From Jimgerdemannia flammicorona (taxonomy: Eukaryota), in NCBI GenBank assembly GCA_003990765.1, contig RBNJ01000127.1:1-40103 (forward strand): a DNA stretch of 40,103 nt. Reading direction: 5' to 3'. A program made the position numbers and the translations under genes. Positions 14,319 to 37,347 of the stretch are shown piece after piece; the stretch's first letter is position 1, and every line of letters begins with the position of its first letter. The notes under the pieces are model-generated. The model saw nothing but the letters and a program-made list of their open reading frames with translations, made no database searches and was not told the origin of the DNA.

Positions 14319-14967
14319 ATGACATGCACCAGACAGACTGCAAAAAGGTTGACCTTTGGGCCTGCAAAACGAAGGCATCTGCCATCTACGCCAGTCACAG
14401 GGTCCATCATGACTCCACCAATGTGAACGACGACGTATGCAACTACGACTCTCAGGACCAGGTTATCTGTTCAGGTATGCTATGGTGTTGGGCTGATAAG
14501 GATAAGAGAAAAGTATACAACACTAGAGAGAGGGTCAGTAGACGTCTCTGTGACTGAAGCCATATGACCATTTATTATTTTCTTGGTGAACGTCTCTGTG
14601 ACATACAGTATATCAAAGCATTCACCTGTTTATCAAAAAGTATTTAAAACAAACCCTGATTATATTATACAGATCAAACATTGGGAAGGTCCTTCTCTTT
14701 ACCTGTCATGACCTTCAACTGGATTTAATTGCTGGTGATGTCCTAGCAGCTTGCAGATGCTGTATGCCAGTGGAGAACTTTGTCAAGTCCTGTCTGAATA
14801 CTGGAGGGTGGCAAGGGACATATATTCATAGGTTGCATGCACTATGTTCAGTTTATCCACAAGTATACAATATCAGCCAGCACTATACAATGGTTAATTG
14901 TGGCGAGGGTAGCAGTTATGTTGTACAGGTAGTAGGATGCAAGGCTCCTCAAAAAAACATAGACTGA
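14319..14967 (+). pseudogene. Putative gene starting with a histone H3 N-tail-like peptide
   Basis: ATG at 14319: MTCTRQTAKRLTFGPAKRRHL; undoing TG>CG changes gives MTRTRQTAKRSTFGPAKRRHL, similar to H3 [27 protein letters not shown] donor at 14475; open frame 14673-14967 after a TACAG acceptor. Confidence 0.45.
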
Positions 14968-15131
14968 TGTTTCTCCAATAAAAGTTATCTATGTTGTGTT
15001 GTATAATTGGGTGCACGGGTCAGAAAATTGGGCTGTCGAAAAACATCCAAATGAGAACCTGGATGACTGATAGCAGCAGAACTTTATTACAGGTCTAGCC
15101 AACAAGAAAATAGATTGACAGACTTCAATGG

Positions 15132-17185
15132 TCACTTCTCTGTGCTAATTGCTACCCGAATTTCATATGGCCAGTTATGTGTCGCATCCTTCACCGAAAA
15201 CCAATCCATGTGCTCGATCGTATTATTTGGGATGTCCCTGAAGAGGGCATATACCCACTTTGCTCACATGAGCATATTATTCGCAACCCCTCGGTCTTTT
15301 ATCCCAGGAATGGCAGCAATTTTGTCCACAAGTCTCATGGCCTTGGTCCGAAATAGTATGTCATCTCTCATTGTCAGTGCCATGGAGTTAATTTCGCGTC
15401 TAAGGTTAAGATAGCATATCAGGTTTGTATTATTCGCAATTTTTACATTAGTATCGCTCAAGGTAGCCCTTTTTATGAGGGCCTTGAGTGCGTTGCATAG
15501 AGGAGATGGAGTGGATTATGTGGAATCCTCAGCTTTGCTGGTCCCTGCCCGGCGTCTGGCCCTGTCGATCATTTTCCAGAAGGCCTCGACCTAAAATGAT
15601 CATACAGAAATTTTAACATCTCGGAAACCCTATCTAAATACCAGAATACAGTATGTTTGCCTACTGTCTTTGGAGGGTCACTGTCTCTGACTGTGTCCAC
15701 TGCTGACTTCTTGGTTTTGGTGCATTTGGCTGGTCTACTCTCTGCATATACACTGGCAGGTCGTTTGACTGGGGGGCTTATCACCACCTCGGGCATTGCC
15801 TTCTCCTTCCCTTTTCTAGATCTGGTCTCTATAACCCTCAAATCAGTGGGTTCTGGCGGTACGGTAGTGGGATTGGATGCAACGGGTTCATCGTTGCTTG
15901 GCATTATGGCATATTGTCTTTAAATCACCTCCCAATATGGATACACATATTAGAGATAGCTGGTTCTTCATCCTCCCACACAGAGATGTCTGTATTTTCC
16001 TATGTATCAGGCAAAATAGAATCAGGACCTGTTATGCAAGAATGGCATCATATCCAGTTAAGATATATTTACATGTAAAATTCTGCAATAGTGGTCCAGA
16101 TCAGAGAGAAATGTTTTTGCAAATTTCAATATAAAGACTCTGCAATCAGATGCATTTTTTTGCTGAGGGATCTAATGGTCAGATATCTTAATTGGAATCT
16201 GTGCTCTAGTATACCCTCTGACAAAATTAATATCCCATCATACCTTGGCTGTGATGATCCTTAGTTCAGATGTATGTGGAGTGCTGATTCTATATTTAGC
16301 CTCTGTTGCCAGATATTCCACAATTATCTTGATGTTCTCCTGCTGGCAGCAACCCTTCAGGGAGTCTAAGACCATGATGAATGGCCTGTATATATACATC
16401 AGCAATTAAATGAATAAAACATCGATAATTTATATATATATAGAAAAAAAAAAAAAAAAACAAACCTCCACAAGGAATCCTTGACCTTGGAGCTGTTGAT
16501 CCATGAGTCTATATTGCAAAGGACTACTAGAAACCAGTGATATCTGTGAGGCAGTGAGGATATATCATTGTCCACCATGATAAACTATCTAAATAAATAC
16601 TTACTCCTCATGTACTGGAATGAGAGAGAATCTGTTGCTATATGGATTGAATTTCTCAATGATTTTGGCAGGATCCTTTCTCCAAAGTACACAAAAAAAC
16701 GGTATTGAATATGGTAATAGGTGTGGATTTCTGTGGAATACTGGTAGACATAGAATAAAATAAGAATTGCTGGATTTAACTCTAGTAATAATATCACACC
16801 CAGCACATATATATTTATCAATAATGATGTTATTGAGACATTTCCCCAGACATAGACAATCCAGATCATTCTCACAGACCTGGCATCAATTGTATTGATG
16901 CTTGTGAGCATAATCCTCAATATCTAAAACATCTGCTGGTGTGTTTCTGCTCCATGTGATAATTGTGCCTATGCTGGCCTCACCTGGTGAGACCAGGTAG
17001 CAAATATTGTATAGAGCTTAGAAGGTGGTTCAAAAGAATCTATAAACTGGTCACTGATAAATCTCTGAATGCAAGATCTGTATCAGTGTAGAATAATCAG
17101 TATGGCCTGTCCCATCATAGAATAAGTGTTTGGCTGTTGGTGCATGCTGTGGATGCTACTGCTAGTAGATCTGGCATATGCATTT
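15132..17185 (-). pseudogene. Ulp1/SENP (peptidase C48) SUMO protease with C-terminal helical extension
   Basis: Spliced reconstruction: NDLDCLCLGKCLNNIIIDKYI, FSLIPVHE|YHWFLVVLCN (catalytic His), FIMVLDSL (Asp), IPQQKNASDCRVF (Gln/Cys; canonical PQQxNxxDCGVF), then a Pro/Lys-rich linker (15660-15904) and a final helical exon 15590-15132; 5' end approximate. Confidence 0.85.
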
Positions 17186-17495
17186 GGAGTATTTATAGGA
17201 GAGATATATATACCTGCTTACGTATTTTATAATTCCAGTCACATATAATAGAGGAATAGCAGTCTCACCCAATGAGTCTGGACAGATGAGTCACTGGCTT
17301 GCATAACTGCAGTCACATGATTACACAATCATAAGGAATCACAGTCCATATATAAGCCACTCTATATAATAGTCACGCTAAGTGCAAACAATGAAATTGC
17401 ACTACGATCATGTGACAGCGTCTAAGCCACAGAATACATCATTATCATAAATAGAGAAAATCATATTACCCTCATCTGAAATTTCTATTATCAAA

Positions 17496-17933
17496 ATGCT
17501 CAAGAGATATATGCAAAATACTCAGAACTGCTTCTGTAAACCTAGTATATACTAGGAGAAGGAAGATGAAAGCAATAGTGGAGAGGGTTCATTTATTCCT
17601 AAATATATTCAATTTAATAAGGTAAAATAATTACAGTCTTATTTGGTTCTTTATTATATTGGCTATTAGTAATACTTATATATTTTTATAGAGTTTACCA
17701 GTACTCACTAATGGCCATCCACCATCTTATGGTATTCTAAAGAAGTTAGAGAGGTTTAAGGCTGCTATTTCAAATAGCTTGCCCAATTACTCATTAACAA
17801 AGCTTTCTATGGAATATTGTATTCATTATATATAGTTTGACCTATATACTATCAACAATGCCCCATTATGCTATAGTAAAATAGAAACTCTGTTTGAGTA
17901 TAATGAAATATATTCAGATATTTATTTTTATAT
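17496..17933 (+). pseudogene. Degraded two-exon hypothetical gene
   Basis: ATG at 17496, GTAAAA donor ~17622, TATAG acceptor ~17691, mostly open frame with TAG stops; no family recognised. Confidence 0.3.
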
Positions 17934-17967
17934 AATGAATTGATCAAATGGTTAAGTATATAAATTT

Positions 17968-19760
17968 TCAACTTGGTACTTTTATTGGACTATAGAATAT
18001 TTGCCTGGTCATTCTCATCTTTTCCAATTTAGTCTGACCAGTATTAGTCTATATTGCAGACTGATACTGAATAGTACCATCATCAATGATATTCTAGAAT
18101 AGAGAGTTAAGATTAATAACCATGACTATTAACAGAATGATACATGCAAATAACAAAAATGCCTATATCAACCTGAATAGTTCTCAGTACTTGGTAGCAT
18201 CCTAGTATAGTACTCCATAATGTTGCCTCTTATGGAAACTCAAATTCCCCAATTATTATTATGTGATAAATTCCATCAAAATGAAGATCCATTATATATG
18301 CTCTTCCTAAAAAAACCTGGTAATAAATATTGTCAGTATCAATAATATCAATATATTGTTAATGAGATTTTCAAAGACCACTTACCAACTATATGTATAC
18401 CACAAATGATAAGATTTGGTACACCATCCTCAATTGACTTATCTATGGCATTTTTCATTACCTTGCCAAGACTAACTAGATCCTATTTAACTAATTTATT
18501 TTTTGCATTGGGTGGTTTTATCTCACCAACTAGCAGCTCAATATGTTTTTTATCATATACCATCCTAATGATGAAATCTGGCTTTGTGCCCCAGAGGGCT
18601 GGATCAAATCTCTTTTTTATCATTGATGATGATTTGGATGTACTATTTGCCCTTTTGAATCAATAGAATAGTGTTTATATTGTATTGGTACTACTATATC
18701 ATAGAGTATATTCTATATCTACCATTCAAATATAGTTCTCTTGTTTTTAAAGAATGGACTCAATACCGGTATGACAATAGAGTGAATATGAGTGTCTTCA
18801 ATATTATGGTTTTATATAAATGATGGCCACTCATTATTGACCCTTATATATTATGAGCAGTATGAGGAGTAAATATGTTAATTAAGTGAATATCATTACA
18901 TATAACTTAGCATACATACAGATTTTGAATAATCTCCATCATCACTTCACTATTGTTTGTAGTTTTTAAGCCTTGAAAGTAGTTGTGTATAGCAGCCTTT
19001 CATTTGGGATAATTTGGATTCTTACATACAATCTAAAAAATCATTATTAAATTAGACCAGAGTATATATGTTAAAAATAGAACTTTTTATACCCCCACCT
19101 TGATGGTATTGGCGAATATCTGAATGATATCATCTGAGATAGATATATATGGGTATAGTTTTCAAAATTCAATGAACAATGTACCCCAGAGCTCATCATC
19201 AAAATATCTATCCAGATCATATGGATTCTCTTTCTGAAAAATGAATACATAGCTTAAAGCTCTGTAAAAGAAATCAGGTGGCTGTATTATTCAATATTCA
19301 TTATAATTTTATATAGCAAAACAAATAAATGCAGATAACATATAGTTCTTTGAGAGCTGTCAGATGAGTCTGCATAGTCTCACACTTCTTGATGATTGCT
19401 ATTCAATATTTATAGCATTTACTAGAGATGTCATTTTTTCATATCATCCACTGGTTTTGAAAGATAGATGACAATATAAATATATATACTGGTCTGTTAT
19501 AACATATGGTGCAAAATATAACATCATTTACCCAAGAGAGACAATCATCCAGATTCTATTCAATAATGCCAGGACTGATGAAATAGTCTATACAACTATC
19601 ATTGCTTGCCTTAGAGATAGTTGCATCACTGTGAGGTGAAGAGGAGACATAGGATGAATTGGTAACTGTTGCTGCCCCTGGGCTGCTGTTTGGAATCATA
19701 TAGTCAACTCTCGATGAGTTATTTCTTAGCACCATAACACTTGAAGAATGTACCTATATA
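17968..19760 (-). pseudogene. Multi-exon PD-(D/E)XK restriction-endonuclease-fold protein (CR-REase/Crinkler C-terminal type)
   Basis: Exons give IEDTHIHSIVIPVLSPF, ANSTSKSS..GTKPDFII..IELLVGEIKPP..DLVSLGKVMKNAID..ICGIHIVG, AYIMDLHFDGIYHI..GEFEFP; PD and ExK catalytic motifs visible at ~18580-18520. Confidence 0.75.
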
Positions 19761-20469
19761 GATATATGCAGTTATTAATACTAGACCCTTTGCATAAATT
19801 AGAATGGTAATAATCTTACATCATTTCATTTAGAAATGATATCTAGCAGATAGCCAGATGTATCATCTTTCTGAGAGTAAATATCTGATATTTTAGAGTA
19901 TATAAAAGGAAATGTATAAAGCTATATCTGTTAAATAGGCTATTTGACTGAAAGGTATCAATAATAACTATGAATAGGCATGTCTTTTATTTTTCACTCA
20001 GTCATCATTCATATCATCCCATTTTTGCTTATGCCTTAGCATAGTTTCACATACCACTATCATACTAACAATCAACAATTGTTTACACAAATCCACCTCT
20101 TTACATATCAAATGTAGTGAATAGATCTTGCTATAGGAAATGAGCAAAGCTCTTCTACCTGTAGCCTCGGTACCCCTTGAACATTTTGATGGTGATAATG
20201 TAGCTGATATCATATAATCTATTTTGAACTAATATAATACATTTATATATATTCATAATACTTGTGGGTGAATTACAGATTTTCAAATATATATACTGGG
20301 AGTTAATGTTGTATCACATAATGCTTACTTCAATATATTTGATCTAATGGGTGGTATATTGAGGTCTGAACACCAAAAAAATATCTGTTAGATAATAGAT
20401 ATTGAAGGAAATGAATGTTATAGCAAATAATATACATTGAAATGGTGGTGGTGTGATATCTGGTGGGTT

Positions 20470-20828
20470 CATTTGCTGGTACGAGGGCATTCAATAATGA
20501 CATGGATGTGTCCATTATCAAGGAGTTCAGGAAAATACTTCTGGACCTTGTGGGCTACTGGCAGATTAACTCTCTTTAACACCATATCAATAGCAGCCAT
20601 TGGATCAGCTTCAAGTGTGGTCTACAGATCATTGGGGTTATCAAGTAGAATATCAACCATCTATAGTTTAAGATTTTTTGCTGTAATATAATCAAGTTCT
20701 GATGAACATTTTTCCTTGATGAGGTCCTTCAGTGTACTGAAACTTTTAGTCTTCCTAATCTCCACAGGAAAGTTTTGGCGTAATGGGCTGGGATCACTGT
20801 GGATAAGGTAGTTGAGAGTGATGGACAT
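20470..20828 (-). pseudogene. Crinkler (CRN) N-terminal ubiquitin-like header domain; possibly the 5' end of the REase gene downstream
   Basis: MSITLNYLIHSDPSP..NFPVEIRKTKSFSTLKDLIKEK..ITAKNLKL*MVDI..QKYFPE..GHIHVIIECP: CRN pattern with LxLWxV (W>stop) and HIHVIV. Confidence 0.85.
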
Positions 20829-21846
20829 ATCAAAAGCTGTATAAATGATCTAGTGAGACAATAGTGCTGGTAGCAGTGGATCCAAGATGTGGTATTATTA
20901 CTTATAGTTAGGTAGGCTCACTATTACAAGTAAGAGTAAGAGAGGAAAACAATGTGTATTATATTTTTAATTGAACAGTGGATCTAAGACCCTGGTAAAT
21001 GATGTTACACATTAGCTACCAAATTTTGCCTGTTTAGATACTAGCACAGCATACAGTAAAGACCATCCCTTAATCTATCATATATCTTGTAATGGTTCAG
21101 AAAAACTTTTCCAAGAATCTTACCATCAGGCAATTTATCCACCAGCATATTCATCATTCATAGACTATATGTGGGAATTGTTTTATTACCATCAAATAAA
21201 TTATCTGATATCTGATGCCATAATCTTGATCTAATCATAATTTTTACAGAATATATGCTGTATCTGGAATGAGGCATATTTGTATAAGATCTTTAATATA
21301 TATACTGGCCAATAAGGAATCCCCATATTCAACTGCATTCCTAGTACACATTCTTTACTATGATTATATGCAAAGGTGTTACAGCCCGAATTTTAGTGCC
21401 AATATTTTGTACGACCATTCTCAAAAAATGGTAGTACAGAATATTGATGCTTGAATCTGAGCAGAGCTCATACTATTTAAAAAACACCAACATGGCTAGT
21501 ACTCTCTGTATAATTCCTGAGAAAGTAATTTATTATATAGACCCATATTCAAATAAAAGTGTAGTCATAGTATGCTTTATACTCCAATCTACAATCTGGC
21601 TACCCAGAGACAGAATGACATCATTTATATATCCATAGATATTTGCAAATCTCAAATCTCATAATTCCACCCCTTAATGAAATTCTATAATATATAACAT
21701 GCTATCAAACTATATATATAACTTTGCTGGTATTGCTTTTTTGCAATAAACAATCCACTACATCAAGGATCCTACTAGACCACTAGTTATATACAACTTG
21801 GCTCTAGTATAGCAAACAATTTTCACATGTTATTACAGCTGGATCT

Positions 21847-23930
21847 CTACTCATCCATGACAACAGAGACCATTGACATGATCATGCTCTGCAGTAGCTG
21901 GCTCGCTGATACATATTTGGCCCTGATGCTGATAGTATATGTTTTACCAACTATGTTGCGAAATATATCATCATATACACTGAGTGTTTCAGTCTATAAA
22001 AGAGAAGGAGAATAAATTAACTTAAAAAAACTTGACAAACAATAAAATGATGAATATATATCAATATACTGCAAGATTGGCCAATTCATTGACACTCATC
22101 TTGAACAAAGATTTGCCAACCAACTCAAATGCCGTTGTATTCATCTGGTTGTCAGCTTCACCTATTATGATTTTAAGAAAGTATCTGAAAACAAACCTGT
22201 ATGTCAATATACACAAAAAAGAGGGGTGGCTGATTTATAGTCAATTTCAATTTTTTATACTTTGTATACATATATCTCACCAATATCATACCTATGTTCA
22301 AGACACTCTCTGCTGTCTTTAATTTTCTTTTTGCACATGCCACAAGATATATATGATATTTCACTATCATTGATACTGATCATGATAGCTTCCGACTTGA
22401 AGCAGATATCTTCATTTTTGTTGCTACAGGTCTTTTCAACTACATTCACCAATGTCATCAATGGGTACTCAACTGAATATACAAGGCTCTTGGGTATACC
22501 ATTTATCTTTACAGAGTCTTTGTGCTACCTGTGTAGCTCTTCACATTCCAGAAAGGCAGGATCCAGAAGTATATATGGATAGCTTGGCAACTATAGAGAT
22601 ATAACTGCATGTAGTGAATTAATAAATATCTCCATATCCAAAAGTCAATTCAAAATTGGAGTACTTGACTACACTTACATCCTTTATATTCCTGGATGGA
22701 TACCCCATAGAGCAAGGCTACATTTTCGACTGAGCCCTTGAATAACTCCACAGTGCTGCCCCATAAAGTGACCACAATCTTTCCATCAGTATTGGCGATG
22801 GTGAACTTCTGTTACACCCACTTATTCCCATTCTTTGTACCATATATAGCATTTTCATCACATTGAATGATAACCCCAATGACATCTGGAGAAACAAAAA
22901 GGATGTCAATCATCTCTGAATTTGCTAAAAAAAATCCCAACACTTCATATTATCATACTCACTTAGATCCTTCTGACCAGTATATAGGTCAGATAATAGT
23001 GTAAGATCAAGCAACAGTTCTGCTGACTTCTCCTCAGATTTTTCAATAACTGTGTCTGAGTTGATGGTGTATTCCTGTGGTTTGCCTGGGATTGTGGTGA
23101 TTTTGAGACCATTGATGCTATAGTGCTGTCCAGCTACAATATGTCTAAGCTTCGATACATTATCACCAAAGACCTTGATTGAAATTGGACAGCTCTGCAG
23201 AATAATGAAATATGTGAATACAAGTACCTGTGAAATACAGTCACTCTGTTGAGTGTCATCATTATCTCCACCTTTTTAACAGAGCACCAAGCTTCAGCAT
23301 ATTCCTTCTCCTTGTTAGCCCACTTTAACTTTGTCAGTTTTATTAACAATATAAAGGCAGTATTGAAGGCAGCAACCCTGGGTGTCACTGCAACTGAGGA
23401 GTGGCCAGCAATAAACATCTTGTTAGGGCATTGATCAGAAGTAATCTGCTCAGTACAGGTATGCTTACAGATGATCTCTTTAAACTCTACTGGATTCCTG
23501 ATCATTTTTGGAGGGGTGGATGTGATTCTATATGTCTGTATGTCCATATGTCTGGGGCAGTATATTGAAACAAATAAAATCTCCTCTTTATAATGAAATC
23601 TGCATCCAAGTCTATAATACTCAATCAGTAGAATGACCATCCTACTTAAATTTTATGACAGAGATGATTGAAAACATCTTCAGTGTCTGAGGGGTATTTG
23701 GAATAACAGCTGTTACCAAAATAATAGATTAGACTGACTTTACTACTGGTTACTGACAAGGGGTCCCTGTTCCCAAACATGCCTGATATCTAATGCTCTC
23801 TATCAGAAATATGCAGCTCATATCCATGTCCTTTAGGCATAACTTTGGTTATCTGCAGGTTGGGCTTGTAAGTAGTTATATGGTCTGGAGAACTATAGTT
23901 TGCAATAAAGTTAATTGACAGGGTCACCAT
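21847..23930 (-). pseudogene. RPA1: RPA1/RPA70-like ssDNA-binding protein, paralog 1 (intron-containing; N, A, B, C OB folds)
   Basis: N: MVTLS..KPNLQITKV..YELHISDREH; A: ISIKVFGDNVSKL..GQHYSINGLK..EYTINSDTVIE; B: DVIGVII..TKNG..FTIANTDGKIVVTLWG..GVSIQEYKG; C: ISYISCGMCKKKI, TTAFELVGKSLFKMSVNEL, GKTYTISIRAK. Confidence 0.85.
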
Positions 23931-24137
23931 TGTAGATATAGGTGTGGAGCAGTATAATAAGATAATTGCATATCTTTTATATTTAGCTCTTCATATATTG
24001 AATCAGATGCAGATAGCCATCCTGATACAGAAAGTACAGAACACATGACATTGCTGGGCCAGACAGGTTTTCTCATGTAATTGTCCATGATGCATTGATC
24101 TGTCTTGAACCCACTAAACCACAATAAGCATGCCTAC

Positions 24138-25267
24138 TATTCAATGGATTCAAATCTCCACACAGACCTCTACACTGCCTTCTGCTATATTATTTCCTTT
24201 TCAATATATTTTTATTCTTTGTCTATGGTTGCAAGTGAATTATCAACCTCTTCAAAGAATGCTTTAATCAATTAAACTATTCTCTATTGAAAGCCTGATT
24301 TTGGCTTCACTATAATGAAATGAATATCTACAAGCTTATATGGCATAATCCCTACATATCTATAACTGCCCAAACCATGCTATAGAGGATACTGTATGAT
24401 CATACTATCCCTAAGACTAATGCTGGCCAGAGATATAGTATAGGTCCTTTCCCTCTCACTTATCACAGCCAATGTAAAATCAATAGACTTAATTTCTACA
24501 GTACCAAAGTCCACCAAGAGGCTATTGTGTTGGTCCTCTGGGCCAACCTTCTTAAATACATTTAGTATTCCCCATACTCTAGGCCATGCTGCCTGTATTG
24601 CTGCACTATCACCAGAGTGAAATGATATATTGTACTCAGATATATTACTAAGATCATCCACCTTATACAGCTGAAAAACTATATTAATGAAGATATATCA
24701 CTACGCAAGCCCTTCAGTAGCAACCAGTCCACCCCATATTTGTGGCTCATACTTTCGGGGAACTGCACCATCTGGTTCACATGTTATGGGGCACTTGATC
24801 TCAAAGAGATTACATTCAGCAGAGACTCTAGTCTGTCAGCTATTTTGCATAGCTGTCATCTACAATGCATCATTGGCAGTATGCTATACCACACCAATGC
24901 CATCAGGTGAGTATCTGAACTGATCCACATCTAGAATATCCACTATGCAGATCTCATAACAGTATATCCAGTACCCCAGCTGCAGCTCAGCAAATGCAAT
25001 AGTGACTGACTCGAATGCTGTCCCAAATCCACATGCTGCACTTCTGAATGACTTGCCCTGACCAAGCAGCCTTTCCATAAAGTTCTCCATGAATTTGACA
25101 AAAGAATCATATCAGTTCAAACCCCACATAGTTCCAAGGTCTGAACTACTGATGGTGATATTTAGAAGCTTGTACCATCTTGGATCATGCTGTTTGATGG
25201 CACTATATCAGTGCTGGAACTCTTCAACTGATCTCACCAGCTCTCTTATATTTGTAATGGCTGACAT
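24138..25267 (-). pseudogene. YqaJ/lambda-exonuclease family nuclease, asfarvirus D345L-like; intronless, single frame with in-frame stops
   Basis: KQHDPRWY..TISSSDLGTMWGLN*YDS, SAACGFGTAFE, RYSPDG, LFEIKCP, VPRKYEPQIWGGL, FINIVFQLY, PRVWGI, VDFGT, VGIMPYKL; 3' end approximate. Confidence 0.85.
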
Positions 25268-25354
25268 ATTATCCAAAATAATACTAAAGGAGTTATGGAA
25301 TACCTTTATAGTGATTGAAGACGAACCTAATATTCAGGATGGTGTCTGAGTTAT

Positions 25355-26348
25355 AGTATCTACAATTGTCACTGATATAATTGTATATTCTACATCTATA
25401 ATATTACAGTATGAGCTGTGCATATGATATGATAATAGTGATCAGTGATAGATTTAAACAATATACTGTACTGATCTTCATCCAGATGCATCCAATCATC
25501 TGCTGAGACCTCTAATAATGTAACAGCAGCCTTCTCAAATACTATTACAGTAACCATTATCTATGCAAATATGTAGTACATATTGAAGAGATGGACTAGA
25601 ACACACAACATCACATTTGTTATACATCCACTATCCAACATATTCTGTGAGCTGTCTATTGCACAGGCTGTATGCATTATATGTAATATTCTCTTATTCG
25701 ATAATAGTGATATAGCCTGCGATAGTACTATAGTAGAGCTCATCCAGTGGAATCTCCATATCCAGAAGAGTTCACAGTGTTGAGATTGCCATAACTCTCT
25801 GATAATCAGTCTTGTCATAGCTCTGCATAGTCCACTATAGCTACAGAGCATTACTCTCAGTATTGTCAAGATTCTGTCCAACACAGTTGATATCAGTATA
25901 TGTCAGAGTATACTGAGCACAGAATACCTTTGGTAGTATATTACTAATCACTAGGATATCACCTGTTGCAACTGTCAGATCAATGGCCTGCTGCCCCCAG
26001 AATATAACTGAAACAATACAACCATCTCTACCAACTACCTCAAGTGAACATCAACTTGTGGTACCACCTCTAACATCTGTAGTGACCAGCTCACCACTAT
26101 CTATCACCACACAAAGGATGTCAACAGATGTCTTTCCACAAATATCATCTAATAGTATATAGGAATATACTATCTCTAGATAGTCATCAGGCCCACATGT
26201 TATTATGATTGCAGCATCTCTCATATCCAGAAATTAGTACTTTGGCACATGCTGTAGCCTGGTACCAGTGATGTAGCAACTGCACTCTGATACTAGCTCT
26301 CTAAATACTGCATTACTATTATTTCACTGATATGTATTTTTATAATAT
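25355..26348 (-). pseudogene. RPA1: RPA1-like paralog 2, 3' part (OB folds A-end, B, C), separated from its 5' part by the Ngaro insertion
   Basis: VDILCVVIDSGELVT..GGTTS*CSLEVVGRDGCIVSVIFWGQQA, NLDNTESNAL*L*W, ITYNAYSLCNRQLTE..G*WMYNKC (eroded Zn finger), QYVLHICI, VFEKAAVTLLEVSADD. Confidence 0.8.
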
Positions 26349-26648
26349 ATATAGTTATGAATGCAATTCAAACTTCAGCAAAGTGGCCGAGAGCTGCTTA
26401 ACATTATGTGGAACAATCATGCAATTTCCCCTTGGCAGACTTAGTTTAGCTCATTTCATGCAGTTTTTGTCCCTTTCTATGCCAAAGATAACTTAGCTAG
26501 TGGTGTTTTGAAAAATACGCCAACCATTAATGCAAGTTAGTAACAATGTAATCGGTCCAGCGACTGAGTATTCGTTGCATCTCAGCTAGTCAGGCATATA
26601 TTACGCCAAGTTGCAATTAGTCGCTAGTATTTACAATCAGTTCACATA
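26349..26648 (+). repeat. Ngaro repeat A1
   Basis: atatagttatgaatg.aattcaaacttcagcaaagtggccgagagc ... tttacaatcagttc duplicated at 30825-31125. Confidence 0.95.
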
Positions 26649-26659
26649 TCACATTCACA

Positions 26660-27978
26660 ATGCCCCCAATTCACACTCGGTCTCATGGTTCTTTGGAACC
26701 AGCTATAGCCCCAAGACCAGTTGCCCCCCTAGCCCCCTTACATGAACCTCACCCCTCCCCCATTCCTAATCTATCTGGCCTATGCACTTGTTGCAAAGAA
26801 CAGCTAGTCGCACTGTGTCACGAACATCATCTGCCAGTCGAAGGTCAAAAAGCTGCACTAGTTACGCATCTCAACTTGTACCATCCAAGTCCCAACCCTC
26901 CACCTCAGCTGATTATTGGAGAGCAAGCTGAAGATGCCCTTATTGAATGCTTAATCCCCACTTTAGTTGGGCGCCTTGCAACACATCCATCCATCATACC
27001 GATGGGCCCCAACTTAATTACTCTGCCAGTATCAGGGCTACCGGTGGGCTTGTCACAGGTAATTCCTCTACCGGCCACTACTCCTCTCTCAGCTATGGCC
27101 CCCTTCATGCCGCCACCTCCCATGACAAGGTTGATGTCACAATCGCTGCCAATCTGCAAAGTGGTGAGTCTTCCTTGTCTCTCATTTCAGATGCTGTGCT
27201 TCGACGGAATTGGGTACCGCCTGACTTGCTGGCATCACTAGATGCGGGCGACTATCAGATTCTATCCGAATGGACCGGCAGTGCTCTTATTTCGCGATCA
27301 AGCAGCTGCAAAAAAGCAGATATACACATGCCTGACTGCGACCTAGATCTACCACTGTGGCTCAAAGCCATCTTTAACATCCGAGGTGCTCTACTGGCTC
27401 TGGGTACCACCCGATCGACCTTGCTTGCATCCCATGCTCCTCAACTTCTTACCCATGCAATCTTTATCGTTAAAGCGATAAATGATCATTATGACTGGGT
27501 GGCACTTCAACGCTTTGACTGTCAAGTTCGTACACTCAAGGTCTCCTTCCCTGACTTGGACATCAGCAATCCAGACATGGTTTGCCATACATTCGAGACA
27601 ATTGTCGGCCAACCTTCCTCAGCACCCTTAGTATACCAATGTCACTCTACATTCTCCTATGCTGGATCTCATGCAGTGGGAAGTTCATCAACTGCCCACC
27701 CAGCTGGTGGCCCAAAACCGGTCTCATCCACCAACCTCTTGTGCTTTCGATGTGGGGTGTGGGGACATGCCATCAGCTCCTACACCCAAACCCCACTCCA
27801 GCGTCCTACTTTCCCATCCAAGCCAGACGATCCTATCTACCCAGATGGTGCAGCAAGCTCGGTCTGTCATAACTTTAACAGCTCTGGTTGCTCCTATCGA
27901 AACTGTGGTCAAGTGCACATATGCCTCTTCTGCTATAGACCTCACACAGCCCCGGCTTGCTCTGCTCGCCATGGCTAA
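26660..27978 (+). pseudogene. Ngaro ORF1 (gag-like) with SAP-like motif, CCHC knuckle and C-terminal Cys/His finger; frameshifted
   Basis: KEQLVALCHEHHLPVEGQKAALVTHL; CFRCGVWGHAISS; CHNFNSSGCSYRNCGQVHICLFCYRPHTAPAC; split between ORFs 26660..27241 and 26947..27978. Confidence 0.85.
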
Positions 27979-29713
27979 TCTCTTGATTCCCCCCACTTCT
28001 AGTCACCCAACCACCCTGTACCATATTAAGGAGTGGAAAAGGGTACTGCGTTCGCATCCAAACCAATCACTCGTTCAGTACCACCTAACAGGTCTCTACC
28101 ACGATTATCAGCACGGAAATCACTCTCACCCTGAGCTTCGCATCAACCTCATATCCGACAACCTTACCTCCACTTACCAGCACCAAGAAGTTCTCTCCAC
28201 CAACATTCTCACTGAGCTAGCTGCGGGTGGCTATCTTGGCCCATTTTCGTCTCTCTCCTCCATACTACCAGAATTCCGCCCCTTTTGCAATGCACCCCTT
28301 GGTGCCATTCCTAAAAAGCACTCGTCCAAATTTCATACTATACAACATCTATCCTTTCCCTACGGGAGTTCAGTCAATGACAGAATCAATCCTGAGGAGT
28401 TCTCAATCCAGTACCAGTCTATTCAAGCCGTCATTCTCCTTCTCCTCTCAGTCAGCTCTACTGCGCTCTTCTGGAAGGCCGATGTGGCTGATGCCTTCCG
28501 CACCATCCCAGTACACCGCTCCGATTGGGCTATGCAGGATATCTGCTGGCTTGGTCTTTTCTTCCTCGACATGTTCCTCCCCTTTGGTCTTTGCTCTGCT
28601 CCCTTTATCTTCATATCTCTCATGGACCTCTTTACCTGGATCTGTATTTAACTATACATTCTTCCTAACTTGGGCCATTTCATTGATGACTTTATTTACG
28701 TCGCACCTCCGTCCAGCACATTCTCCTCCTATAATCAATTTCATGCTACCGCATCTCGATTCGGCCTCCCACTCAAACCCTCCAAAGATATTCCTCCTAC
28801 TCCAACTATAGAGTATGTTGGCTTCATTCTCGACGCTCCGACAATGACGATTAGTCTCCCAATGGAGAAACGCACATGTATTCTCACCTTACTAGCATCA
28901 TGGCTTACACCGGCTCAGCAGACTCAATCATACCATCTATGTCCACATTCACACCATGAAGCTCAATCACTCTCGGGCCATCTTATGCACATTGTTCAAA
29001 TACTTCCAGATGGGAAGGTGTTTTGCGACAGCATCATTCACTTTGCTTCCTCTTGGAAACTGCCCTATGCGGGGCAGCGTTTTCCACCTCCTTGACTAGC
29101 CACTGACTTACAGTGGTGGTATGATATTCTACACTCATGGCCAGATCATCGCCTGCTCTGCCATTCCAAGTGGCTCGATTGTAGTCTGTTTACAGATGTA
29201 TCTGGGACACTTGGTGCCAGTGGCCTGCTGGGCCAACGCTGGTGGAGTACTCGTTGGGCTCCCTCCTTCTTAGATCTGAATGGCTATGACATATTCTGGA
29301 AAGAAATGTTTGCCATTTGGGTCTCATTGGTGCTCTGGGGCCCCTTGTTTTGTTCTCAACGTATTATTCTCTAGTGTGATAGCCAGCCCTGTGTCAAATC
29401 ATTGACCAGTGGTCGGGCATGCCATCATCCTCTTGTCAATGACTTACTTCATCGTATCATTCTCTTACATCTCGAAATCGGATTCGAAATTCAAGCTCGT
29501 TACATCCCTTCAGCATCTAACCCTGTAGACCCCTTATCTCGCCATATACTTCCTCCATATCCCCAGGACCCATTGCCTACATTAATCACATCCCTCTTTG
29601 GCTTCGCCATCAATTCGACACCTGCCTCTACCAACGCACCCACACTCGAACGGGTAACTTCTGGTCAGGCACCAATTCTCTACACTGATTTCTCAACTCC
29701 TGCAATATCGTAG
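27971..29713 (+). pseudogene. Ngaro ORF2 reverse transcriptase + RNase H (in-frame stops)
   Basis: PLGAIPKK..HLSFP.GSSVND, KADVADAFR, LPFGLCSAPFIF, HFIDDF, IEYVGF; RNase H FTDVSG, IFWKEMFA, CDSQ, YIPSASNPVDPLSR. Confidence 0.92.
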
Positions 29714-30636
29714 AGACTGCTGCTTTCTCTCTTCAAGATGAATTACTCAGTTATTGGGCTCTTTGGCTTGTCCAAGATGGCAAGCCCTACTCCACCATCA
29801 AGAACTACTTTGATGATCTCACAGCCTATCAGATCACTCACTGATATGGTCCTCCACTCCAGCACCTTTCTCTACCCCTCTTCAACATCATTATGAAGTC
29901 TATTCAGACTCACCCACCACCTTCCAGTTCACTTGACCAGCTTTCTATTATGTGCCAACACCTCTGGTCTATCTGTCTCTCTCTCCACATAGACACTCCT
30001 TTTGGTGCTACTATTTGGGCAGTGGCGTGCTCTGCTTTTTATGGCTTAATGCGTGTTGGTGAATTTACTACTCAAGATGGCTCCATATTCAATCCGAATT
30101 GGCAAATTTGTCATCACCATCTTCATTGCCAACAGGATGACACCCTTTCTTGACCATTCTGGGCTCTACATCTTCCCCGAACAAAAATAGGCAGAGCAGG
30201 CGACGTCTTCCTTGGCTTCTCTGGTGCCTTCGATTGCCCGTGCACTGCAATTGACAACATGGTCCATATTCACCCAGCACAACCTCATGACCCCACCTTC
30301 TGCCTTGGCCTGGGCCAACCACTTTCTTGATCTACATTCATTGAAACGATTCGATCTTCGCTCACAGGCACCTCTCTAGCTGTCGGTATTTATGGTCACT
30401 CCTTTCGAATTGGTGGTGCCACGCTTCTGGTAGCTGGGGGCTATCCTGATCATGTCATTCAACTTACTGGTCGATGGAAATCCACCGTATTTCTCTGCTA
30501 CATTCGACACCTTGACCACATTCTCCCCAAAACCATGGCAACACTAGTAGGACTCTCTCTACCTGATCTTCAGCAGGCCATGGGTTTGGCCGGTAATGGC
30601 CGAATTTTGCCCATAAGTGGTTTATGGCACCATTAG
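29560..30636 (+). pseudogene. Ngaro ORF3 tyrosine recombinase (in-frame stops; start approximate)
   Basis: AFYGLMRVGEFT, LHLPRTK, GHSFRIGGAT, IQLTGRWKSTVFLCYIR (R-K-HxxR-W-Y set). Confidence 0.92.
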
Positions 30637-30669
30637 GAGCCTAAAACCACTTCCCAGGCCCACAGTTTT

Positions 30670-31322
30670 GGCCCCCTTCGCTAATGCGAATGGCGGGCCT
30701 TGGAGGCATATGCTTCCATATAGCCAAACCTACCCCACTTCATCCCCTATACACATTCTACATTTTACGCTTCATAATCCCCCCTTTTCTACTTCGTTGA
30801 ATTGGTCACTCGATAGACACTTTGATATAGTTATGAATGTAATTCAAACTTCAGCAAAGTGGCCGAGAGCTGCTTAACATTATGCGGAACAATCATGCAA
30901 TTTCCCCTTGGCGGACTTAGTTTAGCTCATTTCATGCAGTTTCTTGTCCCTTTCTATGCCAAAGATAACTTAGCTAGTGGTGTTTTGAAAAATATGCCAA
31001 CCATTAATACGAGTTAGTAACAATGTAATTGGTCCAACGACTGAGTATTCATCGCATCTCAGCTAGTCAGGCGTATACTATGCCAAGTTGCAATTAGTCG
31101 CTAGTATTTACAATCAGTTCGTGTAACTCTCCCACCCATCCCCTTTTAGTAGTATATAATAAAAGAAGGCCCCCTTCACTAATGCGAATGGCGGGCCTTG
31201 GAGGCATATGCTTCCATATAGCCAAATCTACCCCGCTTCATCCCCTATACACATTCTATATTTTATGCTTCATAATTCCCCCTTTTCTACTTTGTTGAAT
31301 TGGTCACTTGATAGATACTTTG
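30670..31322 (+). repeat. Ngaro 3' repeats B1 (30670-30824), A2 (30825-31125), 42-bp spacer, B2 (31168-31322)
   Basis: ggcccccttc.ctaatgcgaatggcgggcc...gataga.actttg present twice, flanking A2. Confidence 0.95.
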
Positions 31323-32606
31323 CCTATCATTATAGAGACAGTTAGGAAAGCCATTACAGGTGTTTAGCATAATACTATCTACTGAATACTCACCCCACTC
31401 TGATCACAGACCGTTAGACTGAACTTCTCATTCATAATACTAGTTTGGCTTATAACTAGCACATGAACTGTAATACCAGATGTATGTGGTATTAACTTGC
31501 TGATAGAGGTGATTTTGGAGAATGATATTACCTTCTGGTGCTTGACCTTTGTCATTATATTATCCTAGAGACTACTTTGGAGACCTGGGAGCTTCACCCA
31601 TCACTATTTTGTTGAATTCTCGAATCACAAGGTGGCTGTTATATATATAAAATACTGATTATGCTTATATATAATACAATTACAAAGGCCAACACATATA
31701 GGATATATATGTAGATTCACACTTAGTCTTATACTCATAATCACTGATGCAAATAATTGTGAATTCCTCTATATCAATAGAATTCATAGATATTGCTATA
31801 TACAAAAATCTCATATTAGTCACCAAAATACCACTGCAGTCTTTATCTACAAGTCAGGCATACATATCCAGCATAGTTTGGTCACCATCAGAGATAATGC
31901 ATATTGTTTCAGTAAGGACTAGAACCTGGTCCCTATAGCTTGACACATCATCCACTGAAACCTATTCAACCTTAAGTACCTGTAGAATAATATTGTTGGA
32001 TAGAGTGAACTGCTCCTTTCCAATGCCTGCAACAAAACCTTTAGTGAGAGCAGGTGGGATAGAGAAGGTAGAAGAGATATTTGTGAGAGGCAGAGTCTCA
32101 GTACTGATACTAAGAGGTGCTGACTCATCTTGAACAAAGACTGACTGACTTGTTAATCCTCTTAGCTGGAGTTCAGATTACAGTGAATTCAAGAATTAAA
32201 CAGAAACTACAGTTTTTCATGAACAGTAGAATATTGTTAATTCTAGTGTCAAAAAATGTCAGAACAGTAGAAATGGCATACATACACATGGCCATCAATC
32301 ACCAAAGGTTCAAATTCATCAATACAAATAACTGAATTCAAGGCAACTCCATCTAGAATAGTATAAGTTGTTGCATGTATATAATGCATACCATCCGAGA
32401 TAACCAGACTATGGAAGTTATATGACACTTGTAAATAGACATCATGGTATATAATTTTGAACAAAAAAACTGAAAATATAATAGAAGACTCACATTGGCA
32501 GCTATATTTTTAATATCTGTACAATAGGTGTCAATACTACACTCAAATTATGATATAGAATATATACTGAAGAATTATCAAGTGGAGAATCAGAAGCAGA
32601 AACCAT
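31323..32606 (-). pseudogene. RPA1: RPA1-like paralog 2, 5' part (two tandem RPA70N-like OB domains and start of DBD-A), intron-containing
   Basis: ATG 32606: LTPIVQILKI|..HSLVISDGMHYIHA..LNSVICIDEF; second copy ALTKGFV..IILQVLKVE..CIISDGDQTML..FTIICISDY; then ITSISKLIPHTSGITVHVLV..FSLTVCDQSG|GTGAGT..CTAAC..GATAG. Confidence 0.75.
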
Positions 32607-32714
32607 AATATAAAGAAAAGACCAACCAGATTGAAAAAGAAAGAAAGAGATAGTATATATATCAAATTGTGACTGTGAGTGACTATATTAAGTACTGAAT
32701 GGATCTTAGCAATC

Positions 32715-32954
32715 GATTATATTAGTATAATTAATAGTATATAGGAGCAAACACATCTTTTGCTCAAAAACCTCCTAAGTGACTTCGAATTTTTTATCTG
32801 GCCAATGAAATCACATTTAGCATAACCCTTTTCATTGAAAGGATTACACTAAATGACAGCTCATTAGCTGGGCAAAAAATTTGAAGTCACTTAGGAGGTT
32901 TTTGAGCAAAAGATGTGTTTGCTCCTATATACTATTAACTATACTAATATAACC
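32715..32954. repeat. Long inverted repeat (~94-bp arms, ~52-bp loop); MITE or hairpin
   Basis: ttatattagtata.ttaatagtatataggagcaaacacatcttttgctcaaaaacctcctaagtgacttc.aattttt is the reverse complement of 32861-32954. Confidence 0.9.
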
Positions 32955-33149
32955 TATTCTCTTTGATCATTCTAGGAGAATTGTCAGATATATATTCTAT
33001 AATTTGTTGAACCCCAATATATATAAAGTATCTCCCAAACTATACCTGCTTTCATTTTATTTATAAAATATTACAATAGCTGATGATTTTAAAATCTCTT
33101 ACATTCTAGCTGCAACTATAGGTAAGCTTGACTGATTTTTACTAGAGCA

Positions 33150-34728
33150 AAGATATGGCAACAATCTGAGTATGGAGCAGAATAATATATTATATGCTGT
33201 AGTAGACAATGGTCAGAATATATTCTGTATAGGCTCTGCAGGTAAACTATATTTCTTGTCTGAGTTTGTTTGGGATCATATAATATATTATATACAAAGC
33301 TGATATACTCTTTATCAGGGACAGGGAAAACATGGCTACTCCTGTGAATGATTGCTCTTCTCGCAGAGAAGCATGATGAAGAGAATATTGCTATAACTGT
33401 AACAACTGGTATAGCAGCCTCCCATATCAATGGTCAAATGATCCACAGCTTTACAGAGATTAGCAATGGTGCAAAAAGTGTAGAAGAGCTTATATCCAGC
33501 ATAATGAAAAATGCTACAGTGCAAGATCAATGGAAGACTGCTGTAGTGCTTATTATTGATGAGATATCAATATTGAGTCATAAGCTATTTCAAAAGCTTG
33601 AGAAAATTGTGTGAAATATTTGTGGAAGAGATGTACCATAGAGTGGTCTCAAAATTATCATTATGGGTGATTTCTATCAACTCCCCCCTGTTGTGGTTGA
33701 ACAAGATTCCAGAGGAATATATGCTTTCCAGGCTATATTATGGGCAGCATCTATTCACCTAACATTTGTTCTCAAAGAGGTATATAGGCAAAGGGATCCT
33801 GGTATATATGTATTTCTATTGGCCATTCTAGTATTTATTGAGTCTCTTGTTAATAGCTATCTTTGTAGACTTTATCCAGATATTAAATAAATTGCATGTT
33901 GGCCAAGTGACCAAAAAAACAGAGGATATAATGAAGTCTTTGAAACATCCACTAGCCCTTCCTGACCAAAGAATCATTCTGGTATCACTATAAGTATCTC
34001 ATTTTCTTATAGTCCTTCTTTGAATCTATCTGAGATTTAGGACTCTTTACCTTAATGAAATTTGCTTTGTCTAGCTTTCCAATCCATAAGAAGGTATAAG
34101 AAATAAATTGTCATCAGCTCTAAAAGTTGATGGGCAAAGCCCATCGCTATGTTGCAATTGACAGTGGAGATATAACAATGGTTGAGAAGCTGTGTTTGTT
34201 TCCTCAGATATTAGACTTAAAGGTGGGTGCATGGGTAATCCTGCTGAAAAATATGATAGAAAACCTGGTAAATAGCAGTGCAGGAATCATCGAGAGTTTT
34301 GTCAAGGACCAGAGTGAGAGCATATCATACCCCAAAGTATGGTTTGACAATGGAATAATCCAAACAATCTGGCCAGAAGTATGGAAAAATGAAGACAGGT
34401 ATATATAAAAATTATTGTTTTTGTCATCTGTTTTGTTTACAAAACTCTGACTGATAAACTACTCTCAAACACATCAGATGGACTAATCCTGGCCAGATAT
34501 GTACAGCTGTCACTAGATCTGACATGGACATTATCAATACATAAATCACAAGGAATGACCATTGAATATATTGTAATTGATTATATACAGATATTTGCAG
34601 CTGGGCAGTTATATATAGGTATATCTTGTACAAAGTCTCCCAATGGATTGCAGGTACTGAACTTCAGTCATACAAAATGTATTGTAGATACTACTGTCAC
34701 AGCCTTCTATAAAAGATTGAACAGCTGA
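33150..34728 (+). pseudogene. PIF1: PIF1/RRM3-family 5'-3' DNA helicase (intron-containing, core only)
   Basis: LSMEQ..QNIFCIGSAG|TGKT, ITVTTGIAASHINGQMIHSF, LIIDEISIL, GDFYQLPPV, LKEVYRQRD, LKVGAWVILLKN..LVNSSAGII, IHKSQGMT, FAAGQLYIGIS, GLQVLNF..VTAFY. Confidence 0.93.
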
Positions 34729-34734
34729 TTTGAT

Positions 34735-36235
34735 TTATTTATCAGCTTTAAAGTATATCTCATAAATTCTTGCACTTATTCCTACTATAACCTTTGGTCC
34801 CATTGCATTGTGTATCATTATCTGTTGTTTGTCATCACCATTTAAAATGCTATATACTGCAAACAGATTGCTGGATATATGGTAATATGTAGCTATCTCC
34901 TGTGTCTTGGTAAATGAAACCCCCTGCACAGTTGTGAGCATTGCTATAAAGATATGCTGGAGATGGCAGCATTGGACTTGTTGTTCAGTGTACAGTATGC
35001 CTGATAGATAATAAAGTATGGTGTTGTGAGATATTTCTGGAGTGCAAGATATGTAGCTCAGTTGATATATTCATCTGAGATGTCATTCAGTTGCTGGATC
35101 TCTATCTTCTTCAGCTCATTGTGCATGGTAAGATAGATAATGGTGTAATCAGTGCTGGATATATACTTGACAAAGAAGCCATCTCTGATATATGTGGTGG
35201 AGATTGCCGATATTATTGCCTGTGGATTGAATGCATTGACCACTACAGAATCGTATTCCTCAATAATATACACAACCTGGTCTGCACCAGAGCACCTTAG
35301 TCATACCTTCTGCTCTACAAAGCATCCATCCTTCATGCTGGTCACCAGATCATCCATGTGCTTCCATTCAATGATCCAGTTTAGCACCAGCTCCATCTTG
35401 TCACTATGCCGACATGTGACCCATACAATGTCTCCAAGCTCCAGTGCATGTACCTCTACCTCAATATGATGTTTCTGCAATTGTGCACAGATGTAGTCAT
35501 GGTTGGCGATGGACCTAATCTCACAGGAATCGAGAATGAGCACCACATCAAAGGTACCAGGGTAGAATATAGTGGGTGTGATAGATGGAAATGATGGTTT
35601 GTCTTCCTCTCCTACTTTTGTCCTTTCTGCTACTTGGAGTGGTCTGGACAGGTGATGTGCCAGTAGTGCTCCAGCATCTGTCAGAAAATACTTAGCTGGA
35701 TTGCTATCCTTATTAATCAATCTCTTTATCACCAAGGTATTTAGTTCTGACAATGTAGCTCTATCGCAATATGGCTGTGCAAGAGGTTTGAGGTCCTTCC
35801 TGGCAATGTGGACATCAGCAGCATGCAGGGCCATGAGAATGACATATGGACTACTACGTAGCCTGGGGGTGTAGGAATGGGGTATGCTACCAGTGGTAGG
35901 TGAATTGGAGTTGTATTTATTGTGTTCTGATAGCTATTTAATTAGCTTGCTGACTATCTGTAGACCAATACCCTTTAGATGGCATGCATCTTGTGGTGAT
36001 GTGAAGGGAATCAGATAGTGTAGAATGGCATTGTAGGCCTGTAGAGTTTGAAGAATATCAGCTCTAAAGATTATATTAAAAATAATAACATCTTTGCAGC
36101 ATGGGTAATGACCTTTTGATATGAATAATATACCTTAGATCCAGTGGCCTGTACTTTATACATGTGCTCTGCAAGACATGCCAGATAGAGTGGGTTTGCA
36201 CAGGATGCATGTTTTGATTTTGATATTGATGGCAT
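34735..36235 (-). pseudogene. MUS81: MUS81 structure-specific endonuclease (HhH, winged helix, ERCC4, HhH2)
   Basis: SCANPLYL..YQK|AY..HLKGIG; YTPRLRSSPYVILMAL; VVLILDSCEIRS, LELGDIVWV, IIEWKHMDDLVTSMKDGCFVEQK (canonical ERK..DDL..SIKDGRF.EQK), VYIIEE, MLTTVQGVS. Confidence 0.92.
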
Positions 36236-36915
36236 GCTGATTATTGTACAAGAGTCTGGCCACTACAACTATTTAAATACTGTAAGTATCCTCACTATAT
36301 CTGTACCCAATATGTATCCATATTTCTGCCACCCCTTAGAGTCTATTACCTGTCCCCCTTGCAATCAACTGCACACTCTAAAGAGTGGCTATACAAGTGG
36401 CAATGTTCAGAGCTACCCTATACTTTACATAATACTAAAGACAAAATATACATTTAATAGCTCTGAATCCATTATAATCAACCCATATACACAAGCCCAT
36501 ATTACAATTAAAACTACTGTCAGCATTCCAGACAATCACTATGAATGTATTATATCACTCCTGGGTTACCACCACACATTGAGATGAGAACTACAACTAT
36601 CTGCTTGGGATATACAGGTGTACTGGGCTTGGAAATATATAATAACCATACTACTCTATATATCATTGACATAGGGGTTGTTCTCTGTGAGCTTGTCACT
36701 AAGCGTATATATAGTAAGGTTATATTTCCCTTTTCTCATCTTTCTTTAATTACATGATATATCTATCTCACTCACTAATATAGTCTATAAGACAGAGGCC
36801 CATCAAGTCACAAAGGCAACTACACAGAATGCCACCTATCTTAAAGCTCTGCTAGAAGCAGTATATATCCCATCTACTATATTTATTTGATCACCAATAA
36901 AATCAAAAGGTACTA

Positions 36916-37347
36916 CTATTTATTTACATATGGCATCTCACTACGAATGTAGTAGGCAAGAATTATATCCTTTGTTACAAGTGTAATACATTTGGCATGG
37001 ATTGTAGCCAGGTAAGAATCTTCAAAAAGCTCAATAATATATGTCTCCACTGTCTCCTACAATATACCAAAAGCAGAGGTCTGGATACAGAGCCCCATCT
37101 TGATGTCTTCTAGTACCTTGTAAACCAAGCATATAAAGGGAGCCTTTTTTATGAGCAGTTCTGTAGATCTTTGGTATTTTTGGATCTCTCGAAAGGCAAC
37201 TATCCCAGAATGATAACAATGGGGTCTCTTGATTCTGCCTCTTACAAGGATTATTTCACATGGAGCTAGGATCATTTTGTGTAGAGCTGGGACCATTTTG
37301 TATGGTATCTTATTATGCTTCTGAGGGTTGGGTTGCTTTTGACACAT
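36916..37347 (-). pseudogene. H3: Divergent intronless histone H3
   Basis: KRPHCYHSGIVAFREIQKYQRSTELLIKKAPFICLV..IQTSAFGIL*ETVETYIIELFEDSYLATIHAKCITLVTKDIILAYYIRSE covers the whole H3 fold; N-tail non-canonical. Confidence 0.92.

Follow-up and report, generated by a model that had tools for sequence, protein, structure and literature searches.

A decayed two-domain YqaJ exonuclease gene of giant-virus type in a contig of Jimgerdemannia flammicorona

Introduction

Is the lambda-exonuclease-like frame in contig RBNJ01000127.1 of Jimgerdemannia flammicorona (GCA_003990765.1) a gene or the remains of one, to which protein family does it belong, and did it come from an asfarvirus? The window considered here, meaning the whole stretch of DNA that was analysed, is 40,103 nt long. 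An initial annotation, made from the letters, had read positions 24138 to 25267 as an asfarvirus D345L-like lambda exonuclease between two RPA1 genes, and had pointed to asfarvirus-like endogenous regions in Rhizophagus; such regions are indeed published (PMC10640383, PMC7017919; these and all later sources are cited for the parts of their text that were available). What is known of the past hosts of giant viruses comes mainly from viral genes left as fossils in eukaryotic genomes. We find that the exonuclease locus is a pseudogene, long dead and not a working gene. We judge it probable that the locus is the fossil of a giant-virus-type exonuclease gene that reached a eukaryotic genome as foreign DNA and there was silenced and fell into decay.

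A dead reading frame on the minus strand

The relic and its parts are laid out as follows.

24239..25267, minus strand: pseudogene of a D345L/R354-type two-domain YqaJ (lambda-exonuclease-like) protein, from translation, phmmer, tblastn, and a structure model with Foldseek
24653..25207, minus strand: N-terminal nuclease domain with a predicted PD-(D/E)XK / YqaJ fold, residues ~31-215, from PF09588 in the relatives and from alignments with lambda exonuclease, LHK-Exo and phage YqaJ
24239..24652, minus strand: C-terminal domain specific to the giant-virus type, residues ~216-353, from family-wide motifs and full-length structure matches
24794..24904, minus strand: codons of the catalytic motif residues D132, E166 and K168, from invariant alignment columns

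The ATG lies at 25267-25265 and similarity to relatives spans 25237-24239, so that a lower bound of 24138, as first drawn, overshoots by about 100 nt. The motifs picked out by eye are all present, in a single minus-strand frame: KQHDPRWY, SSSDLGTMWGLN*Y, AACGFGTAFE, RYSPDG, EIKCP, VPRKYEPQIWGGL, PRVWGI, VDFGT and GIMPYK. This frame had been described as intronless, and that part of the description stands: each of nine intact relatives used in tblastn (9/9) returns one unbroken high-scoring segment pair at the relic (best E 2e-60 over 333 aa) and nothing elsewhere in the 40-kb window, so that the relic is free of frameshifts and introns and is the only copy in the window. Even so, the frame is not open. 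Between 24138 and 25297 it holds 13 in-frame stops that use all three stop codons (TGA 5, TAG 6, TAA 2), and 10 of the 13 fall inside the 333-codon homologous core.

Counted per frame, there are 10 stops in the exonuclease frame and 10, 11, 19, 31 and 40 in the other five. Two opposite-strand frames (those with 10 and 11) thus match the exonuclease frame in stop density, and the coding signal of the relic therefore rests entirely on homology. With 10 in-frame stops in the core, no protein product is expected. We also considered a variant genetic code and rejected it, because all three stop codons occur in frame and the relatives show no one consistent residue aligned to them.

Assignment to the YqaJ family

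We translated the relic by reading through its stops, with an X at each (this translation is P0001), and used it in a phmmer search of 1.84 billion cluster representatives. It returned 551 proteins with E ≤ 1e-3, among them 202 with E ≤ 1e-10 and 9 with E ≤ 1e-30; more than 150 cluster representatives reach E ≤ 8.5e-13. The best match (E 5e-58) is 38% identical over query residues 21-353. Judged by sequence similarity, the homology of the relic is far beyond chance. We scanned 30 of the 150 listed relatives for PF09588 (YqaJ) and found it in 30/30 at E ≤ 0.01, with 28/30 reaching the curated 22-bit cut-off, which bears out the lambda-exonuclease/YqaJ-type assignment.

Alignments of P0001 with its relatives, of 21 and 65 rows, place D132 (in RYSPDG) and both E166 and K168 (in EIKCP) in invariant columns, and all three residues are kept in the relic. 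They correspond to the D, E and K that were mutated in pD345L, a protein of African swine fever virus (ASFV), in which a C-terminal part of unknown function follows an N-terminal domain that is a 5'->3' exonuclease and has D108/E144/K146 as its catalytic residues (PMC9034082). The relic, too, continues beyond the nuclease domain, with a C-terminal region of ~140 residues that has family-wide motifs of its own (VDAVFRxC, PxAWG, IDxG and GxxPFKL in the 21-row alignment, conserved in the 65-row one). A profile search of the PDB returned mimivirus R354 as the best match (E 2.4e-9), significant only over the N-terminal ~165 residues; its ranking agrees with that of the fold comparison below.

Predicted structure and its nearest matches

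An AlphaFold2 model of the relic translation, made with the 65-row alignment, has a mean predicted local distance difference test score (pLDDT) of 90.8 and a predicted TM score (pTM) of 0.88; since the relatives' alignment went into it, it speaks for the family no less than for this copy. Compared with the viral models of BFVD, it ranks D345L of abalone asfa-like virus first (E 2.9e-22, TM 0.70/0.77, 354 columns, 22% identity) and D345L of ASFV second (E 1.1e-21, TM 0.69/0.75, 336 columns, 22% identity). D345L is thus the best labelled structure match, and the relic is rightly called D345L-like. Ranks 3-5 are three entries without names, which may be of faustovirus or pacmanvirus type; longer mimivirus-type proteins follow at query-normalised TM scores (TMq) of 0.45-0.56. 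Among solved structures, mimivirus R354 comes out best, aligned over its full length at TM ~0.52 and 376-394 columns.

Phage proteins match a smaller part of the model. Those of the YqaJ family in BFVD cover only ~170-220 columns at TMq ~0.3, and lambda exonuclease (1avq; E 1.8e-5, target-normalised TM score, TMt, 0.53) and LHK-Exo (3syy/3sz4; TMt 0.55-0.56) align over 176-196 columns, in the N-terminal half only. Full-length alignments, of 336-394 columns, were obtained only with D345L-type and R354 structures. The claim that similarity continues through a C-terminal half absent from generic YqaJ proteins therefore holds, and the model indicates that the relic has a lambda-exonuclease-like fold of the D345L/giant-virus type.

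Set beside the known systems, the relic shares with D345L of ASFV and abalone asfa-like virus a two-domain architecture of similar length (a core of ~330 aa against 337-345 aa), a full-length structural match (TM 0.69-0.77 over 336-354 columns), the D..E.K motif (PMC9034082) and the C-terminal domain. It differs in its 22% identity, in that another relative (P0115, below) matches D345L better, and in that it is a dead copy resident in a cellular genome. The Cas4-like nuclease R354 of mimivirus, from the MIMIVIRE locus (PDB 5yet/5yeu), likewise combines a nuclease with a C-terminal domain, but identity is only 13-14% and the TM score is below that to the D345L models. Lambda exonuclease, YqaJ and LHK-Exo (PF09588) have the nuclease fold and the catalytic residues, whereas these phage proteins lack the C-terminal domain and align over ~176-196 columns.

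Viral affiliation of the relatives

The nearest labelled groups of the family are viral. For the closest relative, P0002, 28 of the best 30 Atlas clusters are YqaJ clusters, and the top three consist of 94-100% viruses, most commonly Nucleocytoviricota. Several relatives lie on contigs of 80-253 kb, while the six closest (P0002-P0007) lie on contigs of 1.5-28 kb. A YqaJ-like recombinase is, moreover, counted as a core giant-virus orthologue group (PMC13533422).

We also ran a pattern scan, built on an alignment of relatives, over one genome per species for 185,579 bacterial and archaeal species. It gave 9 pattern matches, and 1/9 was confirmed. That match lies on the 402-kb contig CAZZCR010000001.1 (71443-82018), filed under a metagenome-assembled genome of Flavipsychrobacter (Bacteroidota), where a 396-aa two-domain YqaJ gene sits between a NUDIX gene and a gene for RNA polymerase subunit Rpb5. 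Because of these two neighbours, the contig looks like that of a giant virus mis-binned with a bacterium. The evidence points to relatives of the relic that are overwhelmingly viral.

Asfarviral ancestry

Does the D345L ranking make the relic asfarviral, as the initial annotation proposed? We folded a control, the relative P0115, which belongs to the 47 rows opposite the relic in the tree described below (pLDDT 93.5), and put it through the same BFVD comparison. Its top five entries are the same five as those of the relic, with better scores (TMq 0.73-0.85 vs 0.62-0.70) and identities of 21-32% against 18-22%; for the two D345L entries, P0115 reaches TMq 0.77-0.83 with 21-24% identity and the relic 0.69-0.70 with 22%. 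Because the control outscores the relic on the same entries, the D345L ranking reflects the compact full-length members that BFVD contains, not a special affinity, and the specifically asfarviral part of the proposal is not borne out. We considered P0115 as a representative of the ASFV D345L cluster and rejected this at 24% identity.

The 65 rows gave an unlabelled maximum-likelihood tree in which the relic and a sister group of six proteins form a 7-row clade (SH-aLRT 99) nested in an 18-row clade (SH-aLRT 99); the remaining 47 rows make up the other side, and the tree carries no labelled asfuviral sequence. The relic is 38% identical to environmental proteins and 22% to D345L. It sits in a well-supported branch of environmental sequences that is not demonstrably Asfarviridae, and a specifically asfarviral ancestry is not shown by sequence, fold or the unlabelled tree. 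One member of the 18-row clade, P0010 (490 aa), has a dUTPase domain fused to the exonuclease.

Descent from a virus of the Asfarviridae or Asfuvirales, like the Rhizophagus endogenous region, thus appears to us improbable, although the two best labelled BFVD matches are D345L proteins of an asfa-like virus and of ASFV. Besides the control and the low identity to D345L, the fetched relatives argue against it: none has more than one of the D345L motifs that the initial annotation had listed, so that ASFV D345L was not identified among them, and none has the D108/E144/K146 numbering (PMC9034082). The GC content of the undecayed part of the window, 42-54%, also misfits the 28% reported for R. irregularis (PMC10640383).

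Flanking genes and the CpG-depleted block

On either side of the exonuclease relic lies a relic that resembles the large subunit of replication protein A.

25334..26233, minus strand: RPA70-like relic A (DNA-binding domains DBD-B and DBD-C), from Pfam on the X read-through
22073..23275, minus strand: RPA70-like relic B, from Pfam in different frames and a splice-site reading

The two genes had been described as RPA1 genes that both have introns, and this is right for one of them. Relic B, downstream of the exonuclease (REPA_OB_2 3.2e-6 and Rep_fac-A_C 0.02, in different frames), shows at least two GT..AG introns by splice-site reading, at ~22677-22591 and ~22290-22198. Relic A, upstream on the same strand and in the same frame as the exonuclease (read-through REPA_OB_2 1.3e-3, Rep_fac-A_C 4.5e-4), runs in one frame through DBD-B and DBD-C and is intronless there; its putative stop would lie ~66 nt before the exonuclease ATG. 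A retroelement cuts off its 5' part, and a stretch like the RPA70 N terminus can be seen by eye beyond the retroelement, at ~31700-32100, where Pfam does not confirm it. Relics A and B show no similarity to each other (tblastx, E ≤ 1e-3).

Both belong to a long block of decayed DNA, whose further contents are these.

14501..40103, no strand: CpG-depleted block with decayed genes, the retroelement excepted, from CpG observed/expected
26349..31322, plus strand: retroelement with split direct repeats, from repeat families, domains of relatives and CpG
33211..34725, plus strand: PIF1-like helicase relic, PF05970 E 3.3e-27, by read-through
34824..36323, minus strand: MUS81-like relic with HHH, winged-helix and ERCC4 domains
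36937..37242, minus strand: histone H3-like relic, H3 variants E 4.5e-29
20394..20873, minus strand: relic of a Crinkler effector N-terminal domain, PF20147 E 1.5e-14
~16097-16378, minus strand: relic of an Ulp1-type protease (Peptidase_C48), E 9.8e-5, by read-through

CpG observed/expected falls from 1.07 (1-12000) through 0.74 (12001-14500) to 0.15 (14501-26348) and 0.08 (31323-40103), with TpG and CpA in excess in the depleted block; the sharp boundary at ~12000-14500 resembles the border of a methylated domain. Only decayed genes were found inside the block. The CpG depletion with its TpG and CpA excess would be the signature of methylated-CpG deamination. Repeat-induced point mutation was considered as the cause of decay and rejected, with (CpA+TpG)/(ApC+GpT) at 1.4-1.9 and TpA/ApT below 1 in the block; CpG depletion accounts for the decay better.

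The retroelement, of ~5 kb, has repeats A1 (26349-26643), B1 (30670-30824), A2 (30825-31120) and B2 (31168-31322) at 94-97% identity, a layout that we take to be that of Ngaro/PAT-type elements of the DIRS order. Relatives of its 339-aa open reading frame (ORF) carry RVT_1/RNase H. Its CpG observed/expected of 0.52, against 0.08-0.15 around it, marks it as younger than its surroundings.

Farther along, the PIF1-like relic is spread over three frames by frameshifts and is oriented divergently from RPA relic A. Between these two relics lies a near-perfect hairpin (32711-32831 / 32838-32958) with 121-nt arms that are 87% complementary and 6 nt apart. The MUS81 relic stays in a single frame for 500 codons, interrupted by 5 stops, and is apparently intronless; it lies nearest cellular MUS81 clusters in the Atlas (plants, chordates, arthropods and ascomycetes, all scores below 0.9) and nearest human and zebrafish MUS81 in the PDB. 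The H3 relic has one in-frame stop and an N-terminal tail unlike that of canonical H3, and is nearest to ordinary H3. The Ulp1-type relic bears the Peptidase_C48 domain, which often travels with transposons.

Origin and decay of the relic

How did such a gene come to lie here? The most likely source is the DNA of a giant virus, or of some large DNA element related to one, as the lack of introns and the overwhelmingly viral relatives suggest. It would then have been silenced and have eroded together with its surroundings, by methylated-CpG deamination and general AT-biased decay; the methylated-CpG component is suggested by a CpG observed/expected of 0.08 with its TpG/CpA excess. Lambda exonuclease and pD345L suggest, by analogy, that the intact protein was most likely an Mg-dependent 5'->3' exonuclease that turned double-stranded DNA ends into 3' single-stranded tails, and such resection may have served recombination, repair or recombination-dependent replication. 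Today the relic does nothing, though its D..E.K catalytic residues are still legible.

Several observations weigh against a giant-virus origin. P0001 matches no Pfam family even at E ≤ 1 and no PDB sequence at E ≤ 10, so that the family assignment is transitive, by way of the relatives and the alignment-based model. The six closest relatives, on their short contigs, could be eukaryote-resident or transposon-borne copies, and ISL2EU transposons are reported to carry a YqaJ gene (PMC4122938). No giant-virus hallmark (capsid, PolB, A32, VLTF3, D5 or RNA polymerase) was found among the 125 ORFs of at least 75 aa in the window, nor in read-through frames across the 40 kb, where few-stop frames were scanned and not all six everywhere. 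The neighbours, too, look cellular, given the introns of RPA relic B, a cellular-type MUS81 and an ordinary H3.

Two alternatives make the surroundings part of the story. The exonuclease might be a surviving gene of a large, eroded and methylated giant endogenous viral element (GEVE) that host genes and retroelements have invaded, with the intronless RPA relic A, and perhaps the PIF1-, MUS81- and H3-like relics, in the same viral insert. The block is suggestive of this: more than 20 kb of CpG-depleted DNA hold only decayed DNA-metabolism genes, no intron interrupts DBD-B/C of RPA relic A, whose putative stop lies ~66 nt ahead of the exonuclease ATG on the same strand, and the MUS81 relic keeps a single frame. 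The Rhizophagus GEVE, for its part, is sparsely coding and contains pseudogenes, introns and eukaryotic genes that were inserted into it (PMC10640383), and integrated giant viruses are reported to be methylated in Amoebidium (PMC11244446). The missing hallmarks tell against such an element, however, as do the spliceosomal introns of RPA relic B, the cellular-type MUS81 and H3 relics and the lack of detectable similarity between the two RPA relics, and the available supplement text for Rhizophagus is silent on YqaJ, exonuclease, D345L, RPA, MUS81 and histone (PMC10640383). The 1.5-Mb region of R. irregularis resembles the present block in its decayed giant-virus-type gene, its compositional distinctness, its apparent silencing and its inserted mobile elements (PMC10640383), but here there is a single viral-type gene, no hallmark within 40 kb, and a base composition that misfits. 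On balance we think a GEVE unlikely.

The exonuclease could instead have been cargo of a eukaryotic transposon, either of the ISL2EU type or Helitron-like, with a PIF1-type helicase and an RPA-like protein. Helitrons commonly encode RPA-like proteins, and here RPA70-like relics flank the exonuclease on both sides, a PIF1-like helicase relic lies at 33211-34725, and other transposon-associated relics (the Ulp1 protease and the retroelement) are close by. ISL2EU elements, in turn, encode a YqaJ-domain protein as their second ORF and reside in eukaryotic genomes (PMC4122938), but near the relic neither a transposase nor a THAP domain nor terminal inverted repeats were seen: a DDE transposase and a THAP domain were both absent from window ORFs of at least 75 aa and from the read-through frames scanned, and the only inverted repeat, at 32711-32958, does not bracket the exonuclease. 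Nor did we find a Helitron Rep domain (Helitron_like_N) in the three frames of 30900-33200 (E ≤ 0.1) or in ORFs of at least 75 aa, and the helicase and RPA relic A are divergently oriented. Since the labelled structural neighbours are giant-virus proteins as well, cargo of this kind seems to us quite improbable, on a level with asfarviral descent. A further idea, which we regard as unlikely, is that a large DNA virus or virus-like element from an unsampled lineage once integrated here and left its wreck at ~22-37.5 kb, together with its own recombination-replication kit. If true, the kit would join the exonuclease to an intronless RPA70-like gene for binding single-stranded DNA, ~66 nt upstream of it, as a eukaryotic-virus counterpart of the phage exonuclease-plus-annealase pair, and would also include the PIF1-type helicase, the MUS81-type resolvase and the H3-like histone; the 7-row clade would then stand for a set of elements of this kind that reside in the genomes of eukaryotes.

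Read as the fossil of a giant-virus-type gene, the relic is a further example of a known phenomenon, the endogenous giant-virus-type gene relic. A single dead gene without hallmark neighbours proves little alone; its value lies in drawing attention to the remainder of the scaffold and in belonging to a well-supported branch among the D345L-type exonucleases. If the host is a fungus other than Rhizophagus, it adds a data point on large DNA viruses in fungi, for which the record is sparse. The relic also illustrates how an insert dies, through methylation-type CpG decay and retroelement invasion, and the one lead that could open new ground is how tightly it is paired with an RPA70-like gene that has no introns.

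Remaining features of the window

Rfam and tRNA scans of the window were empty. In the CpG-normal part, weak partial matches to ornithine cyclodeaminase/mu-crystallin, below the cut-off, lie ~2.4 kb apart at 4401-4772 and 6791-7180, both on the minus strand, and suggest a local duplication. The same part holds a SAM-domain fragment at 82-513 on the minus strand.

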